DNA of 32,000 bases, from positions 30,001 through 62,000 of the forward strand of contig NC_000918.1 in the NCBI RefSeq assembly GCF_000008625.1. Direction: 5' to 3'. Shown here one piece after another: positions 7,923 through 31,675 of this stretch. Position numbers and translations under genes: made by a program. The notes beneath the pieces were generated by a model. The model was not told where the DNA came from. It did no database searches and was given only the letters and a program-made list of their open reading frames with translations. Positions within the stretch are counted from its first letter, which is position 1; every line of letters begins with the position of its first letter. This DNA comes from Aquifex aeolicus VF5 (GTDB taxonomy: Bacteria; Aquificota; Aquificia; Aquificales; Aquificaceae).

Positions 7923-8273
7923 ATGGGAGACGTAAACTTCCTCGAGCAGATGCTTTTAAAGAGCACGATGAAAGAGATAGAGGAGAGGTACGACGACGTA
8001 ATAACGATATACAAGTACGACTACGAAATAAGGGGGATTGCGGAAAAACTCTACAGACTCTCAAAAATAGTGGAAGAAGTTTTCAAAGAAATACCGAACC
8101 CGGAGAAAAAACTGGACGAAAGCCTCTACACAACTCTTTACAGTGTACTCAAAGACATAAATTCAATACTCTACGACCTTTCCATAGCAACCAATGAACA
8201 GATAAGCTACGTCCTCATGCAGGCTTACAGAAAACTTGACAATATAGACAACCTTTTGAGTAAATTAAAGTGA
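7923..8273 (+). CDS. hypothetical all-helical 116-aa protein
   Basis: An open frame with K/E/I/Y-rich composition like its neighbours. Its stop overlaps the ATG of the downstream PRTase (TGATG). I recognise no motif and there is no clear SD. Confidence 0.5.
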   Translation: MGDVNFLEQMLLKSTMKEIEERYDDVITIYKYDYEIRGIAEKLYRLSKIVEEVFKEIPNPEKKLDESLYTTLYSVLKDINSILYDLSIATNEQISYVLMQAYRKLDNIDNLLSKLK

Positions 8274-14862: not shown

Positions 14863-15816
14863 CTACCTCTGAGTTTCAATATTCATACCGAGCTCAAGCC
14901 CAAGCTTATGAAGTGCTTCCTTTATTTCAGCAAGTGCCTTCCTTCCTATGTTTTTAGTGCTTTTTAGCTCATCTTCCGTCATCCTGACAAGGTCCCCTAT
15001 TGTGGTTATACCTATTCTCTTGAGGGAGTTAAGTGCTCTTTGGGATATGTCGAGTTCTTCTATGGAGAGGGAGAGTTTTTCCGCAAGTTCGTCCACCGCT
15101 ACCTTTTGAGGAACTGTCGGTTTTTCCGTAAATATGTTCTCAAGGAGTTCGTAGTGCTTCTTGAGTATTTCTATTGCTTCCTGCATGCACTGGTCGGGAG
15201 TTTTTATACCGTTCGTGAATATTTCAAGTGTAAGCCTTTCGTAAGTGGATTTTTTCCCTACCCTTACGTTATCTACCCTGAAACCTACCTTCTTTACAGG
15301 AGAAAAATCAGCGTCCACGAGAATCCAGCCCACTTCCCCTATAGCTTCCATTTCCTCTACGGGAACGTATCCTCTTCCCCTTTCCACACGAATTTCTATG
15401 TTAAGCTCCTTGTTCGGATCCGTTATAGTTGCTATGTACTGGTCGGGATTGAGTATTTCAACGTTTGGAGGAGTTTTTATATCGGACGCCTTTACCTCCC
15501 CTTCTCCCTTTTTCTGGAGATAAAGTATTTCAACGTCACTGTCTCCCTTCATTAAAAACTTAATTTTTTTAAGGTTTGCTATGAGTTCTATTGCGTCCTC
15601 CTGAACGCCTTCAATCGCAGAAAACTCGTGGTAAATACCGTAAATCTTTACCGCAGTAATGGCAGTTCCGCTAATGGAAGAGAGGAGAACCCTTCTCAGA
15701 GAATTTCCAACGGTAGTGCCAAATCCCCTTTCAAGCGGTTCTACTACGAGTCTCCCGTAAGTGTCCGTTTTTTCTTCCCAGAATATCTTGTCGGGGTATA
15801 TAAACTCGTTTAACAT
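14863..15816 (-). CDS. rpoA: DNA-directed RNA polymerase subunit alpha
   Basis: [27 protein letters not shown] in the NTD and [21 protein letters not shown] in the CTD HhH. Confidence 0.97.
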
Positions 15817-21802: not shown

Positions 21803-22405
21803 ATGAAGATACTCTCGATAGACACATCTTTTTCCTTTATAAACTTCAGCGTAATAGAAGAGGAAAAAGTAACTTTTTTACATTATTTAAAGAGTAATAA
21901 AAAAACCCTGGAACTTTTGCCGAAAATCTTTGAAGAACTGTGTATAAGACCTGAAAACTTTGACGCTTTTGCAGTTTCAGTAGGAGTGGGTTACTTAACC
22001 TCCCTGAGGATAGGCGTAACTTTTGTAAAAACCTGGGCCTATACCTTAGGAAAACCCGTAGTTTCCTACAAAAATTTAGAACTTCTTGCTAAAAAAACTC
22101 CCGTTCCTTTTCCCAAAATCCCATACCTTAAGGTGGGAAGTAACGTCTTTTATCAGATTTTTGAGGAAAGTTCTTCAAGCGAGGTTAAGGTTTTCAAAGG
22201 AGAAGAGTTAAGAGGCTACGGTATAAGCTTAAAAGAATTTGAAGATATAAAACTGGGAGAAAAGCAGTTCTTTCACGATATCTTCCCTTTTTCAGCATAC
22301 GGAGGAATTTACGCTTATGAATTTTTAAAAGAAAATCCCGAAGGTGAAAACGTTTTTGAAATAGAGCCTATATACGTAAAGCCACCCTATCACGTCAAAG
22401 ATTGA
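21803..22405 (+). CDS. tsaB: tRNA t6A37 biosynthesis protein TsaB (YeaZ) family
   Basis: MKILSIDTSFS..., FAVSVGVGYLTSLRIGVTFVKTWAYTLGKPVV.Y.NLELLA resembles the TsaB core (a divergent G.GS.TGLRIG). Confidence 0.7.
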   Translation: MKILSIDTSFSFINFSVIEEEKVTFLHYLKSNKKTLELLPKIFEELCIRPENFDAFAVSVGVGYLTSLRIGVTFVKTWAYTLGKPVVSYKNLELLAKKTPVPFPKIPYLKVGSNVFYQIFEESSSSEVKVFKGEELRGYGISLKEFEDIKLGEKQFFHDIFPFSAYGGIYAYEFLKENPEGENVFEIEPIYVKPPYHVKD

Positions 22406-23406
22406 GAGATTATCTTTTCAATTTTCTCGTTCAATTCCTCTAAATTCGGGTTTTCAAGAGGTTTAGAAAATATAAATCCCTGCACAAAGTCCGTTCCCAT
22501 GTAAAGCACCGTTTTTAACTCCTCCAAGGTCTCAACACCTTCTGAAACGACTTTTATGTTGTTCTCGTGGGCGAGCCTTATGAGGTAATTCACTATAACT
22601 TTCTTCATACTGTGCTTGTGAATATCCCTTATCAACTCCATGTCTATCTTTATGATGTCGGGTCCTAGTTCCGAAAGGTAGAATAGCCCGGAATATCCCG
22701 AACCTACGTCGTCAAGTGCAATCTTCACCCCTTCGCTCTTCAGAAAGGAAATCAGACTCTTTACAGCACTTATTTCAAGCTCTTCGTACTCTGTTAATTC
22801 CACTACTACCTGCCTTGGACTTACGTCGTGCATGTAAAGGGTAGAGATAAAATCTCCAAAGACCTTCAAGGGTTCCCTCAAGAACCGCGGGTGGAAGTTC
22901 AAGAAAAGCCACATGTCTTCTTTTAGAAACTTTCTGGCATTTTTTAAAGCCATGTACCTGCAGAAGTTTTCGGAAAATTCGGAGGTGCTCTTCCCCATGT
23001 TTATCAGGTCAACGATCTTTATAGGCGGTCTGCAGAGTGCTTCAAAAGCTTTAACTCTTTTTTCTTTAACGTCAACGATAGGATGAAACAGGGTTTTAGT
23101 GTCTATAAATATGTTCCCGAGGCTGTGGTATATGACCTTGTCTATTAAGTTCGTAACGGGTTCTGCCTTGGAAATCGCCTTCACTATATTTTCGCAATCG
23201 TTACCAACTTCCCCCTGATAAACTTTTAGGTCCTTTAATGTGTTTTCGTCCATTTCAGAAAGGAGGTAGAGAATTTCCTCGTCTTTTAAACCTGCGGTTA
23301 TTACGGCTGTGCCTGTGCGTCTTGTTTTTGCACCTGTGCTATGTAGACTTTCCTCAAACTCCCTTGCCTTCTCTTCATCTTTGAAAAGAAAAAGTATTTC
23401 TTCCAT
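22390..23406 (-). CDS. EAL-domain c-di-GMP phosphodiesterase with an uncharacterised ~100-aa N-terminal region
   Basis: FEALCRP, ELTEYE, DDVGSGYSGLFYLSELGPDIIKIDMELIRDI, VSEGVETLEEL, VQGFIFSKP. All the catalytic EAL motifs that I recall are present. Confidence 0.85.
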   Translation of the reverse strand: MEEILFLFKDEEKAREFEESLHSTGAKTRRTGTAVITAGLKDEEILYLLSEMDENTLKDLKVYQGEVGNDCENIVKAISKAEPVTNLIDKVIYHSLGNIFIDTKTLFHPIVDVKEKRVKAFEALCRPPIKIVDLINMGKSTSEFSENFCRYMALKNARKFLKEDMWLFLNFHPRFLREPLKVFGDFISTLYMHDVSPRQVVVELTEYEELEISAVKSLISFLKSEGVKIALDDVGSGYSGLFYLSELGPDIIKIDMELIRDIHKHSMKKVIVNYLIRLAHENNIKVVSEGVETLEELKTVLYMGTDFVQGFIFSKPLENPNLEELNEKIEKIISQSLT

Positions 23407-25134: not shown

Positions 25135-25161
25135 GTTGCAACAGTGTTGCAACACTGCAAC
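25135..25161 (+). promoter_or_regulatory. candidate enhancer (UAS): GTTGCAAC palindromes
   Basis: GTTGCAAC at 25135-25142 and 25146-25153, 11 bp centre to centre. The perfect 14-bp palindrome AGTGTTGCAACACT spans 25143-25156. A third TGCAAC is at 25156-25161. The site lies about 55-70 bp upstream of the -24 element. Confidence 0.6.
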
Positions 25162-25203: not shown

Positions 25204-25219
25204 TGGCACGGAGTTTGCA
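25204..25219 (+). promoter_or_regulatory. sigma-54 (-24/-12) promoter TGGCACGGAGTTTGCA
   Basis: TTGGCACGGAGTTTGCAA (25203-25220) fits YTGGCACGrNNNTTGCW at every specified position. The spacing is GG (25205-06)-N10-GC (25217-18). It sits 37 nt before ATG 25256, with AAGGAGGTG at 25241-25249. Confidence 0.85.
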
Positions 25220-25255: not shown

Positions 25256-25597
25256 ATGGCAACACTTAGCAAGTTAAAGGAACTTATGTCAATACCCGGT
25301 GCAGTTGCCGCGGGTGAGTTTAGCGACGATGGAAGGCTTCTAGCCTACTACGGCGACATAGACGAGAAGTCCGCGGAGATAGCCGCCATGATGTGTGCAG
25401 CTAACAAGATGATGGGTAACATGCAGGCAAAGGGCTGGAGTGCTTACACGGGCAAGGACGGCTTTTACCCGGTTATAGGTTTTGCGGTTGCGGGAGGCAA
25501 GTACGCAGCCTGCATAATGGGAAACGTAGGTGTTTTCGTAGAGCTTGATAAAGCTGACTTTGACAAAATTTTTGAAACCCTTTCCAAGTTCATTTAA
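25256..25597 (+). CDS. roadblock/LC7-like small protein (DUF2173-like), paralog A
   Basis: 113 aa. The N-terminal L..L..IPGAVAAGEFSDDGRL pattern is the roadblock/MglB-type signature. Strong SD. Paralogous to the next gene. Confidence 0.7.
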   Translation: MATLSKLKELMSIPGAVAAGEFSDDGRLLAYYGDIDEKSAEIAAMMCAANKMMGNMQAKGWSAYTGKDGFYPVIGFAVAGGKYAACIMGNVGVFVELDKADFDKIFETLSKFI

Positions 25598-25611
25598 AAG
25601 GAGGTGGAGCG

Positions 25612-25947
25612 ATGGCAAACTTAGACAAACTTTTACAAATTAAGGGAGTTTTCGCAGCAGGCGAGTTCTCAGATGACGGAAAGCTCGTGGCTTACAAGGG
25701 TGATATAACCGAAGAAGAAGCCGCTATGGCTGCGGAAATGTGTGCAGCAAACAACGCCATGGCCAAGATGCAGGCTGATGGCTACACAGCCTTTTCCGGA
25801 AAAGAGTGGACTCCCCTTGTAGGATGGGCACTCACGGGACCAAAGTACTCGGTTTGCGTTGTTGGAAACGTAGGAGTCTTTGTAAAGAACGATGAAGTTT
25901 CCTTTAACGAAGTATTCAAAGCTTTGAGGGAGGAGGCGGGCAAGTAA
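25612..25947 (+). CDS. roadblock/LC7-like small protein (DUF2173-like), paralog B
   Basis: 111 aa. By hand alignment about 56 of 113 positions are identical to paralog A (AAGEFSDDG, MCAAN, MQA.G, GNVGVFV). SD AAGGAGGTGGAG upstream. Confidence 0.7.
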   Translation: MANLDKLLQIKGVFAAGEFSDDGKLVAYKGDITEEEAAMAAEMCAANNAMAKMQADGYTAFSGKEWTPLVGWALTGPKYSVCVVGNVGVFVKNDEVSFNEVFKALREEAGK

Positions 25948-25986: not shown

Positions 25987-26379
25987 ATGGCTTACAAGTT
26001 TCTTTCAGAAGACTGGATAAAGGCGTACGCAGAGGAGTGGAACAAAAACGAAAAGTTAATGAACGACCTCAAAAACTTCTCGGCGAGTATAAAGTACTAC
26101 GTGGAAGGTAAAGAAAATGACGCAGTGGAGCTGATAATTGAAAAGGGAAAGGCTGTTTCCGCAGGAAAGGCTGACCCTAATAAAAGGTACGACTTTGAAC
26201 TCTGGGCAAGTCTTGAGAACTGGAAAAAGCTCGCAACGGGGGAGATGGGCCCCAGAGCCGCGATGCTCACAAAGAGGTTAAAGTTTAAGGGTTCTATGAT
26301 TACAGCTATGAAGTACATGGGAGCCTTTGAAGAGAGCTTAAAGATGATGGGCAGAGTTCCGACGGTCTGGGATGTTTAA
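25987..26379 (+). CDS. SCP2 (sterol carrier protein 2) fold protein
   Basis: 130 aa from ATG 25987, with GGAGG 5 nt upstream (the track TTG start at 25975 is less likely). ...W..L..GEMGPRAAMLTKRLKFKGSMITAMKY resembles the SCP2 C-terminal signature. Confidence 0.7.
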   Translation: MAYKFLSEDWIKAYAEEWNKNEKLMNDLKNFSASIKYYVEGKENDAVELIIEKGKAVSAGKADPNKRYDFELWASLENWKKLATGEMGPRAAMLTKRLKFKGSMITAMKYMGAFEESLKMMGRVPTVWDV

Positions 26380-27964
26380 ATTTATAAACAAGGTGGATTT
26401 TAAAACATTTGACGAAATTTTTGACGGTGTTCTCGTAATAGATAAAAACAGGAGGATAGTTTTTGCTAACAAAAAGGCAAAAGAAATACTGGGGGAGGTA
26501 AAGGAGGGAGAGTCCTGCAGGGGGCTTTTTTCCATTTGTGAACACTGCCCTATGGAACTTGTTGAGGACTCAGAGCAAGGAGTTCAGGTTTACGACGTCC
26601 TGACGAAAAGGAAAAATCACGTGTGCCTCAGTATGAGTCCCCTCTTTGAGGGAGGGGAATTTACAGGAGTCCTTGAAGTTTTCAGGGATGTGAGCAAGGT
26701 AATCCACTACATGGAAGAGGTTAAAAGACAAAAGGAGTTTGTAGAAGTCGTACTTGACTCTATCGTGGAGGCTGTTCTCGTTCTGGACGAAAAAGGGAAC
26801 GTTATAAACCACAACGGGAACGCAAGCAAAGTTCTTTGTTCCAGGTTTGAAAGCATCACAGGAAAAAATCTGAAGGAAATAACTTCTCTGAGTCTGGAAG
26901 ACCTCCCGCCGGAAGGAGAAAGGGCGGACATTTACATAGAAACTCCCTGCGGTAGGCAAAAAGCCTCCGTTCTCCTCTCAAAACTGAAGCAGGGAAAGGG
27001 CTGGGTTCTTTCTCTATACATAGTTCCCGAGATATTCGCAGGTGAGGGAAACAAGTTAAAAATCGTTACAAAGAGTCCAAAGTTTCTGAAGGTTCTGGAA
27101 AAGGTAAAAACGATTTCCGAGATGAATGTAAACGTTTTGATCACTGGAGAGACGGGAACGGGAAAGAGCCTGCTCGCCAGATATATACACTACCTCTCTC
27201 CCAGGAGGGACAAGCCCTTCGTGAAGATAAACTGCGGTGCTATTCCTGAAAACTTACTTGAGGCGTAGCTCTTTGGCTACAACAAGGGAGCTTTTACAGG
27301 AGCAATTGCGAGTAAACCCGGAAAGGTAGAAATGGCAAACGGCGGAACACTTTTTCTGGATGAGATAGGAGAACTTCCGCTACACCTTCAGGTAAAGCTC
27401 CTCGGATTGATTCAGGACAAGGAGTTTGAAAGGATAGGAGATCTAAAACCGAGAAAGGCGGACGTTAGGATTATCGCGGCTACTAATAAAAACCTCAAAA
27501 AACTGGTAGAAGAAGGGAAATTCAGGGAGGACCTTTATTACAGGTTGAACGTCGTGAACGTGGAATTACCACCACTCAGGGAGAGGAAGGAGGATATACC
27601 TCACCTTGTGAGTTACTTCCTCGAGAAATTTTCAAAGATCCACGGGAAGAAGGTTAAGGGAGTATCTCCCGAAGCCATGAAACTGCTCTTAGAGTACGAT
27701 TATCCGGGAAACGTGAGGGAACTTGAAAACGCAATTGAACACGCTGTTGTGGTCTCAAGCACGAGTTTAATAGGACCCGACGACCTGCCTGAAGAGATAA
27801 GAATCGGAAGCAAAGTTAAGAAGAAGTTCAGGGAGAACGAGGAACTGGAGAAGATAAAAGAAGCCTTGGAAAGGGCTGGGGGAAACAAAAGCCTTGCGGC
27901 AAAGCTCTTGGGTATCCACAGGACCACTCTGTGGAGGAAGTTAAAGGAATACGGGCTTGCTTAG
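26372..27964 (+). pseudogene. sigma-54-dependent enhancer-binding protein (PAS-PAS-AAA+-Fis HTH) interrupted by one in-frame TAG (27266-27268)
   Basis: Walker A GETGTGKS, then [21 protein letters not shown] (canonical ESELFGH.KGAFTGA), Walker [27 protein letters not shown], and the [23 protein letters not shown]. The two track ORFs (26372-27268 and 27332-27964) are in the same frame. The start overlaps the SCP2 gene by 8 nt. Confidence 0.8.
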
Positions 27965-30451: not shown

Positions 30452-31675
30452 TCACTCTACACTCTTTCCAAAGAGCACTATAAAGATAAGTACTGGGATA
30501 AGCAAGGTAAATACGAGAAATTGAAGCCGATCCTTCTTTTCGAAGGAGACGAGCCATGCTATAATCGTCTGGAGGAGATAGTAAAAGGCGAAGGCCTTGG
30601 AGGCGTATGCGATAATCTCAAAGACGTTAGCGCTCCAAACTAGGGCAACTCCTACCAGTGTCGTGATTAAGTATCCGAATCGAGAGGAAACTCTGTGATT
30701 AGTTTCTTCGTATATTAGTCCCCCTGCGCCTATAGTGTCCGCAACTGCCGCACTAAATTGACTCATTAAGGGACCAAACCTGAGGAGGTATCCCAGAACG
30801 AGGGAAACTGCGGAAGCGAGGAATATAATTTCCGTTTCATCTAGCTTCTTAGGCGGATTGTGGACGAACACGGAAGTTATCAAAAACATAAAGGAAACGT
30901 AAATGAATCCCGAAATCCACTGGGCGAGTTTCATGCTCTTTACCCTCTCTTCTGGAGTGTACTCCTCGCCGAGGTATTTGGAAGTTTCAAATCCCTGAAC
31001 TATCAGGAGTATCCCTCCGAGCACCTCAAGGCTGTGAAGGTCAAAGGGTTTTACCTCTCCCGCAAAGGAAAAGTTTTTGTAGTTATAGTAAAGTAGAGCT
31101 GTAAGGAAAGAGAAGATAATTGAGAGCTTCAGTCCCACTGCATACTTTTCCATAAACTCCAGAAAGTGAAGTCTTCTTATGAAGCCCGAAATTCCGATGA
31201 ATAAAAGTAAACCCGTTGTGAGCAGTCTCTCGTAAACCTCGTTTCTTTCAAAAAATCCAGAAAAGACGAAAGAAGAGAGAAGTCTCAGGTAAAAGGCTAT
31301 GGAAATCATGTACGCGAAGGCAAGGGAAAGGTTTGAAAACCTCTCTACATCTAAGAGAAGGGCTTTTAGCTTGGAGCTTTCACTCCCGTAAAGAATGGGT
31401 TCAGCCTTTATGATGTTGTACCTTATCGCTCCTCCGATGAGGTAGGCTAGAATAACAATTCCTGCCATTCCCAGAATCGCATACTTTCCGAGAACGTAGT
31501 AAAGGAGAGGAGCGGAAACCAGATATCCGCTTCCTATAATTGAGGCAAGAGGCGTGACTGCAACTGTCCATAGTCTCTTTCTTTCCAGAAATGGACTCAG
31601 GAAAAACAGGAGGTATAGGATAAAAGAAGTAAAGACTATGTAGTCCGTAAGGGTTAAACGGTTAAGGATTTCCAT
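30452..31675 (-). CDS. uncharacterised polytopic membrane protein (about 11-12 TM; possibly a transporter)
   Basis: 407-aa hydrophobic ORF. PLASIIGSGYLVSAPLL faintly resembles the G-rich TM1 motif of APC-type carriers. I recognise no confident family. Confidence 0.6.
   Translation of the reverse strand: MEILNRLTLTDYIVFTSFILYLLFFLSPFLERKRLWTVAVTPLASIIGSGYLVSAPLLYYVLGKYAILGMAGIVILAYLIGGAIRYNIIKAEPILYGSESSKLKALLLDVERFSNLSLAFAYMISIAFYLRLLSSFVFSGFFERNEVYERLLTTGLLLFIGISGFIRRLHFLEFMEKYAVGLKLSIIFSFLTALLYYNYKNFSFAGEVKPFDLHSLEVLGGILLIVQGFETSKYLGEEYTPEERVKSMKLAQWISGFIYVSFMFLITSVFVHNPPKKLDETEIIFLASAVSLVLGYLLRFGPLMSQFSAAVADTIGAGGLIYEETNHRVSSRFGYLITTLVGVALVWSANVFEIIAYASKAFAFYYLLQTIIAWLVSFEKKDRLQFLVFTLLIPVLIFIVLFGKSVE

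Follow-up and report, generated by a model that had tools for sequence, protein, structure and literature searches.

A predicted sigma-54-dependent module of paired DUF2173 roadblock-fold proteins and an SCP2-fold protein in Aquifex aeolicus VF5

What do two adjacent roadblock-like proteins do in a bacterium when no small GTPase is encoded beside them? This question is raised by two paralogous genes, here called A and B, in a stretch of 32,000 nucleotides of the Aquifex aeolicus VF5 genome (NC_000918.1, positions 30,001 to 62,000; this whole stretch is the window, and positions are given in its numbering). An earlier note, made from the sequence alone, had described the gene products as roadblock-like paralogs under a single promoter, had suggested an obligate heterodimer without a GTPase partner, and had linked two conserved cysteines of the pair to a cysteine-rich sensor segment of the adjacent regulator. 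Roadblock/LC7 proteins are regarded as ancient regulators and scaffolds of small GTPases. The family of A and B, DUF2173, appears as a bacterial and archaeal branch without a GTPase, having as fixed partners instead a protein with the SCP2 lipid-carrier fold and, in bacteria, a seemingly dedicated sigma-54 switch.

The analysis points to a module composed of enhancer repeats of GTTGCAAC, a -24/-12 promoter, the genes of DUF2173-A, DUF2173-B and the SCP2-fold protein, and the gene of a putatively dedicated activator with PAS, AAA+ and helix-turn-helix (HTH) regions (Table 1). The whole reading, a sigma-54-dependent four-gene module (A, B, SCP2, activator) in which an A-B heterodimer would be the platform for the SCP2 protein, is one to which we give about an even chance; several of its parts stand more firmly and are treated first.

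Table 1. Features of the operon region (window positions; aa, amino acids; bp, base pairs)
Feature	Position	Strand	Remarks
Predicted upstream activator sites GTTGCAAC-AGT-GTTGCAAC-AC-TGCAAC	25135-25161		read from sequence
Predicted sigma-54 (-24/-12) promoter TGGCACGGAGTTTGCA	25204-25219	+	37 bp before A start codon
DUF2173 paralog A	25256-25597	+	113 aa; AAC06465.1 / O66498; roadblock/LC7 fold (model); exact match to VF5 protein
DUF2173 paralog B	25612-25947	+	111 aa; AAC06466.1 / O66499
SCP2-fold protein	25987-26379	+	130 aa from ATG 25987; third gene, right after B
Sigma-54 enhancer-binding protein, N-terminal part	26372-27268	+	PAS (Cys49/56/59/85), second PAS-like region, AAA+ start; 298 aa, O66501
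Activator after TAG, same frame	27269-27964	+	rest of AAA+ (GAFTGA loop), lid, Fis-type HTH; annotated from ATG 27332, O66502

The paralog pair and its SCP2 partner

The genes of A and B lie on the same strand with 14 bp between them, each preceded by a GGAGG ribosome-binding site, and their open reading frames (ORFs) have the coordinates given in the earlier note. BLASTP aligns the two products with 54/108 identities (50%, E 5e-33), which bears out the estimate by hand of about half the residues in common, and the four conserved blocks quoted with that estimate, AAGEFSDDG(K/R)L.AY.GDI, A..MCAAN, MQA.G and KY..C..GNVGVFV, are all found in both proteins. Both belong to Pfam DUF2173 (PF09941, COG4831; gathering score 26.1 bits), with 142.8 bits for A (profile positions 1-105 of 106) and 147.1 bits for B (profile positions 2-106). 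DUF2173 is a small family, with 288 clusters in a profile search of 1.84e9 representatives, and carries the IMG label 'roadblock/LC7 domain-containing protein'. Since A and B are full-length members of a family labelled in this way, their likeness to roadblock proteins is already contained in the database label. In NCBIfam, PADLOC and PHROGs, no match was obtained for A, B or the SCP2 protein, and the three are therefore not a named equivalog, defence system or phage gene set.

By sequence alone, neither protein reaches the Robl_LC7 profile (PF03259; gathering score 23 bits): A gives a sub-threshold match (17 bits, E 0.005, residues 7-54) and B gives none. A sequence search of the Protein Data Bank (PDB) with the family profile returned noise only (phycoerythrin, neuraminidase; E > 0.4), with no solved structure detectable in this way. 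At the fold level, the description 'roadblock-like' was right. An AlphaFold2 (AF2) model of A, built from a 25-sequence alignment, has a predicted local distance difference test score (pLDDT) of 95 and a predicted template modelling score (pTM) of 0.85, and its topology is a1, b1-b2, long a2, b3-b4-b5, a3 (helices at residues 2-10, 37-65 and 102-110; strands at 16-22, 28-33, 75-80, 83-88 and 91-96). Comparison of this model with the PDB by Foldseek gave 69 matches at E <= 1e-3, and the best 50 matches listed were all members of the roadblock family (E about 2e-5 to 3e-4, template modelling score (TM) 0.5-0.72, identity 12-20%), including Asgard and Streptomyces roadblock proteins, MP1-p14/LAMTOR, MglB, MglC and dynein light chain. 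As modelled, A is a protein of the Roadblock/LC7 fold, and from its 50% identity to A we infer the same fold for B.

The pair is part of a conserved gene set. A locus scan with one genome per species yielded 77 loci, to which contig look-ups added more. The order A-B-SCP2 was found in about 73 loci from four phyla, with hosts among the Aquificaceae, Hydrogenothermaceae, Hydrogenophilales, Thiobacillus, Pelomicrobium, Rhodocyclales, Acidiferrobacteraceae and other Gammaproteobacteria, and Campylobacterota. The A-type gene always came first (76 cases) and the B-type gene always second (78 cases). Across Aquificota and Betaproteobacteria, mean identity was 53% between A-type proteins and 62% between B-type proteins, compared with 45-48% between A and B. 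A and B thus form separate orthologous groups, and the duplication predates the dispersal of the cassette.

The constant third partner had been overlooked in the earlier note, as had a stop codon in the regulator gene (see below). Its start is TTG 25975 (134 aa) in GenBank and in the ORF list; we favour the ATG used in Table 1 because homologs begin with MYKFLSE. The product scores 59.4 bits against the SCP2 profile PF02036 (cut-off 21.3) and matches the Thermus SCP2-like structures 1WFR/2CX7 at E 4e-4. No NCBIfam match of the UbiJ/UbiT type was found for it, and no ubi genes lie nearby.

Natural fusions link the three products directly. One protein of 380 aa (P0121), found on three independent contigs, is a single chain with the domain order DUF2173-DUF2173-SCP2, and five tandem DUF2173-DUF2173 fusions occur among more distant relatives. 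In an AF2 model of P0121, made from a 7-row alignment of natural fusions, all three domains fold (pLDDT 80-94) and are joined by two disordered linkers; the pTM of 0.62 is above expectation for three independent beads and is suggestive of contacts between them. The SCP2 domain of this model superimposes on 2CX7 (TMt 0.83, root-mean-square deviation 2.0) and also matches UbiJ-SCP2. The fusion gene has as neighbours SulP/STAS, a cysteine-desulfurase-like gene and a Pyr_redox_2 fragment. By the classical fusion argument, the A-B and A-B-SCP2 fusions suggest that the separate proteins act as a complex. The heterodimer proposed earlier is likely in view of the separate orthologous lineages of A and B, their fixed order and the two kinds of natural fusion.

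Predicted sigma-54 promoter, enhancer sites and the activator gene

Upstream of A, the pattern TGGCAC-N5-TTGCW has its one exact match in the window (TGGCACGGAGTTTGCA), and no sigma-70-like promoter was found on the plus strand in the region of the operon. The putative enhancer consists of two 8-bp palindromes, 11 bp apart from centre to centre, followed by a third half-site; it lies 50 bp further upstream of the promoter, starting 2 bp past the stop codon of the upstream permease gene, and its pattern is unique in the window (chance expectation 0.06). In orthologous loci, a strict -24/-12 match was present at -44 to -76 in 48/86 upstream regions, and most of the others contained near-matches or one-off variants. 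In almost every Aquificota locus and in many betaproteobacterial ones, clusters of GTTGCA/TGCAAC, spaced by about one helical turn, were seen about 100-150 bp ahead of the start of A. Motif content and a position conserved between orthologous loci thereby identify a predicted sigma-54 promoter with upstream enhancer, and the single promoter of the earlier note is borne out in this form.

The same sites were searched for elsewhere. In 85 loci with their flanks (~850 kb), 44 stringent promoter matches had at least two TGCAAC/GTTGCA hexamers no more than 130 bp upstream, and 44/44 stood before an A gene. A metagenome scan for GTTGCAAC-N3-GTTGCAAC-N45-75-TGGCAY gave 49 matches, of which eight also have a plausible, correctly spaced -12 element. 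A-B follows in six of these eight; in L111 the -12 element is a near-match (TTGT) and A-B is absent, and for L102 there is no DNA downstream. Neither the ~850 kb of flanks nor the metagenome scan revealed further regulon members, the strict pattern recovering a subset of true sites. Since no other enhancer targets were seen and the sites travel with the operon, the activator looks dedicated to it.

An activator gene adjoins the set in 60 loci; in Aquificota it follows on the same strand, and in Betaproteobacteria it lies upstream in divergent orientation. In the window, its start overlaps the SCP2 stop by 8 bp. Pfam assigns PAS_9/PAS_4 and positions 1-68 of Sigma54_activat (PF00158) to the N-terminal ORF, and Sigma54_activat positions 92-167, AAA_lid_14 and HTH_8 to the part after the TAG codon, where the GAFTGA motif lies at 27287-27304. 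With its AAA+ domain, GAFTGA loop and Fis-type HTH, the fourth gene is by sequence that of an enhancer-binding protein of the NtrC/NifA family. As the last cistron of the operon, it would make the circuit positively autoregulated.

The reading frame of this gene is interrupted in VF5 by an in-frame TAG (27266-27268) at the Glu of the ESELFG motif, a residue that is Glu in 57/57 orthologs; the orthologs are single ORFs of 510-540 aa. The two halves have been deposited separately as O66501 and O66502 and, like A, B and the SCP2 protein, agree exactly with VF5 records. Because both recur on 4-6 contigs, including independent assemblies, the TAG is probably real in VF5, i.e. a genuine nonsense mutation. 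With the activator cut in this way, expression of the operon may be lost or deregulated in VF5.

The cysteine-rich segment of the regulator had been written as C-x7-C-x2-C. The spacing is actually C-x6-C-x2-C (Cys49, 56 and 59), and there is a fourth conserved cysteine, Cys85; the four residues are present in 42-45 of about 45 Aquificota-type activators. In sequence, the region weakly resembles a Cys-bearing PAS domain from a sensor kinase (9WEX_A, E 0.005). A Cys4 cofactor site in the Aquificota activator PAS, forming an iron-sulfur (Fe-S) or metal sensor of redox state or O2, is plausible. Oxygen sensors of the NreB type, with an Fe-S PAS domain, resemble it in having four conserved cysteines in a PAS domain. 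They differ in spacing, which is C-x2-C-x11-C-x2-C in NreB and C-x6-C-x2-C-x25-C in the activator, and in output, which is a kinase in NreB and an AAA+ activator here. In the betaproteobacterial activators of this operon, the PAS is shorter and free of cysteines, and in Hydrogenophilus the activator (309 aa) is without a sensor domain.

Possible function and alternative explanations

In the explanation we propose, A and B would pair as a pseudo-symmetric roadblock heterodimer like MP1-p14 (LAMTOR3-LAMTOR2), and this heterodimer would be the docking platform for the SCP2 protein in a cytoplasmic ternary complex. The A-B-SCP2 complex would bind or carry a hydrophobic small molecule (a lipid, a quinone or zero-valent sulfur), and A-B would regulate no small GTPase. 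The activator would turn on transcription when its sensor domain receives a signal, which in Aquificota, with the Cys4 PAS, might be of redox or O2 type.

MP1-p14 is among the top structural matches of A (2ZL1, 1VEU, 5Y39) and consists of two paralogous roadblock proteins of about 115-120 aa that form a pseudo-symmetric heterodimer and docking platform, a pairing that is presumed for A and B. It differs in being eukaryotic and in scaffolding Rag GTPases on lysosomes, whereas A and B have no GTPase gene nearby, have an SCP2 partner and sigma-54 control, and are less than 20% identical to it. The third gene has its likeness in SCP2 carriers (Thermus TT1886/2CX7; UbiJ-SCP2 with UbiK; human SCP2), which share the fold and differ in that the partner here would be a roadblock pair. 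UbiJ illustrates that a bacterial SCP2 domain can hold a hydrophobic quinone within a protein complex. In the literature searched, DUF2173 and COG4831 have passing mentions only (DUF2173 in PMC11323534, COG4831 in PMC2464742), and the orthologous split of A and B, the constant SCP2 partner, the natural fusions, the dedicated sigma-54 activator with its conserved GTTGCAAC sites and the embedded cytochrome c-552 gene described below appear to be undescribed. The module is compact and, coming from Aquifex and Hydrogenobacter, thermostable, and with all parts defined it is directly testable.

Hints on physiology come from the hosts, almost all of which are sulfur- or hydrogen-oxidising chemolithotrophs. 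In nine Hydrogenobacter-like loci, the gene of cytochrome c-552 (PDB 1AYG, E 4e-38), a classic model protein of Hydrogenobacter, lies between B and SCP2 and, being inside the operon, would be under the sigma-54 promoter. Hydrogenophilus has a small cytochrome c gene immediately next to that of the activator, and in Thiobacillus the A-B-SCP2 triad follows a cluster of molybdopterin oxidoreductase, NarJ-like and cytochrome c genes. Among archaea, a single-copy DUF2173 gene is present in the Sulfolobales (Acidianus, Metallosphaera, Sulfurisphaera, Sulfuracidifex and S. acidocaldarius); the one product compared directly (P0108) is 55% identical to A, which is suggestive of gene exchange across domains of life among thermophiles that oxidise sulfur. 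In a transcriptome study (mBio 2024, PMC11323534), a DUF2173-domain gene was induced by elemental sulfur 99-fold in A. brierleyi and 32-fold in S. ohwakuensis. Lithotrophic (sulfur or hydrogen) respiration is the most likely physiological setting on this circumstantial evidence. If the link is true, it would give a function to a DUF among the genes most strongly induced by elemental sulfur that have been reported in Sulfolobaceae, and it would explain the cytochrome c-552 gene within the Hydrogenobacter operon.

Several points weigh against this explanation. Beyond the core genes, the neighbours are variable housekeeping genes (peptide deformylase, SpoVG, RibF and others). In the Sulfolobales and other lineages, DUF2173 is a single gene unaccompanied by SCP2, and some distant members have signal peptides, so that the SCP2 partnership is not universal in the family. 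The pTM of the P0121 model rests on a shallow alignment and is only suggestive. The link to sulfur and respiration is correlative and could reflect a common hot-spring habitat together with gene transfer. Finally, the DUF2173 gene of PMC11323534 is called a multi-pass membrane protein there, unlike this family. The identity of the sulfur-induced gene is uncertain because this description does not fit DUF2173, and the supplements of that study do not name the gene.

It is unlikely, in our estimate, that A-B, with or without SCP2, acts chiefly as a trans regulator of the adjacent AAA+ activator, i.e. as an anti-activator or co-sensor in the manner of PspA and PspF. In that case the target of the roadblock pair would be an AAA+ ATPase and not a small GTPase, in a loop sensing a hydrophobic ligand via SCP2. 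Regulation of nucleoside triphosphatases (NTPases) is what the roadblock superfamily is known for (MglB-MglA, Ragulator-Rag), and the resemblance to PspF-PspA and NtrC circuits extends to the AAA+ GAFTGA and Fis-type HTH domains, the enhancer sites and the -24/-12 promoter. As with PspF, one lineage, Hydrogenophilus, has a sensor-less activator, and the betaproteobacterial activator gene is divergent from its operon like pspF from pspABCDE. The sensor domains moreover vary by clade with A-B-SCP2 and the DNA sites remaining constant, and the enhancer motif had no other target in the sequences scanned. The targets are, however, unrelated to psp, the trans regulation is a supposition, and the Aquificota activator has its own Cys4-PAS. 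Also, several loci with A-B-SCP2 (L002-L004, L007, L060, L067, L069, L073 and L083) lack a sigma-54 promoter as well as an activator gene within 6-8 kb. All archaeal members are without the activator, and the Sulfolobales singletons are found in organisms without sigma-54, a factor that archaea are not known to have. A loop with itself as the only output would still need an effector role.

Slightly less probable again is a combined form, in which A-B-SCP2 would be a sensing or buffering complex for a hydrophobic species of lithotrophy (zero-valent sulfur/polysulfane or quinone) that feeds back on its own AAA+ activator. If true, A and B would be the first roadblock proteins whose regulatory target is an AAA+ ATPase and not a small GTPase, with a logic like that of PspA/PspF.

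The earlier note had hinted at a redox, metal or ligand chemistry shared by the cysteine pair and the regulator; that the cysteines of A and B form a redox disulfide, metal or persulfide site whose chemistry is shared with the regulator sensor is, in our estimate, very improbable. Both cysteines (Cys47 and Cys86 in A numbering) are indeed in both proteins here and in most Aquificota orthologs, the four cysteines of the activator are invariant in Aquificota, and the hosts are sulfur oxidisers, in which Cys-persulfide relays such as TusA and DsrE are common. The word 'invariant' holds for the pair in the window and fails for the family as a whole. Of 271 near-full DUF2173 domains, 72% retain Cys47 and 63% retain Cys86; 46% have both cysteines and 11% have neither, with hydrophobic or small replacements (Ala, Ser, Val, Leu, Ile, Phe). 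Among the A-type proteins of the fetched loci, 67/79 have Cys47 (Ala in Hydrogenothermaceae) and 56/79 have Cys86 (Leu in all Betaproteobacteria); the B-type proteins have them in 79/84 (replaced by Ser) and 80/84 (Phe, Trp), respectively. The two positions do not co-vary, each being lost independently, and the tandem-fusion relatives have neither cysteine. In the AF2 model of A, Cys47 is in the middle of helix a2 and Cys86 in the middle of strand b4. Hydrophobic replacement, independent loss and placement within helix and strand mark both as core positions, and the cysteines look like buried core residues rather than a disulfide, metal, persulfide or catalytic site. A functional redox or metal pair in A and B is thus not supported, and neither is a chemistry common to the pair and the regulator, given that betaproteobacterial activators have no PAS cysteines and the Hydrogenophilus activator lacks a sensor domain altogether.

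The classical role, with A and B as MglB-like regulators (GTPase-activating protein, guanine nucleotide exchange factor or scaffold) for a small Ras-like GTPase whose gene lies elsewhere in the genome, is equally remote: the fold of A matches MglB, LAMTOR and Asgard roadblock proteins, and A has the weak Robl_LC7 match given above, but identity to MglB is 12-14%, the constant partners are SCP2 and an AAA+ activator, and some family members appear to be exported, where a periplasmic roadblock-fold protein could not act on NTPases. No Ras-like GTPase was found among the genes of the window, and a screen for G1/G3/G4 motifs found no GTPase among 992 ORFs around 85 loci, in agreement with the 'no GTPase partner' of the earlier note. 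Bacterial and archaeal genes of the MglB type usually adjoin that of their GTPase. MglB of Thermus and Myxococcus, the GTPase-activating protein of MglA, has the same bacterial roadblock/LC7 fold (1J3W, 3T1R, 6IZW; TM about 0.6-0.7); it differs as a homodimer encoded beside mglA, whereas A and B are a duplicated pair below the Robl_LC7 threshold with no adjacent GTPase gene.

Divergent relatives and other features of the window

The other genes of the window are housekeeping genes, including those of BamA, a UbiA-type prenyltransferase, a family-4 glycosyltransferase (MraY-like), ribosomal proteins, RpoA, SecY, Adk, Map, AroC, KdsA and NrdA. Two ORFs, one of 407 aa (30452-31675, minus strand) and one of 116 aa (7923-8273, plus strand), have no Pfam match at E <= 1e-5. 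An EAL-domain protein of the cyclic di-GMP phosphodiesterase type (22390-23406, minus strand) has about 100 N-terminal aa without a recognised domain. A sigma-54-like site with one mismatch, TGGCACTACCGTTGGA, is located at 15706-15721 (minus strand) inside the 5' part of rpoA; no enhancer motif lies nearby, and the match probably arose by chance.

In some distant DUF2173 members, the N-terminus is extended by about 25 residues that look like a Sec signal peptide, e.g. MKRPALVLTVVFLLVSASAALAG; such members include P0111 (L005 8001-8405), those at about 6001 in L084/L085, P0125 and P0128. The Sulfolobales gene is monocistronic in a variable context without an SCP2 neighbour (P0108, P0418, P0420, P0426, P0436, P0445; L138, L141, L143).

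In the Aquificaceae, the cytochrome c-552 inserts (L022 6747-7040, L026 6748-7053 and seven more loci) match 1AYG/1YNR, and A. aeolicus is without the insert. In some Aquificaceae, the main cassette is directly preceded by a diverged second one, A'-B'-SCP2' (51-54% identity to A). These second cassettes (L022 4736-5854; L034 3069-4176) have neither GTTGCAAC sites nor a sigma-54 promoter. Near-identical operons of the Aquificaceae type (86-91% identity to A) are also filed under Acinetobacter baumannii (P0002), an Acidobacteria metagenome-assembled genome (L018) and Thermodesulfovibrionales metagenome-assembled genomes (L043/L046), which likely reflects contamination or mis-binning in public assemblies.

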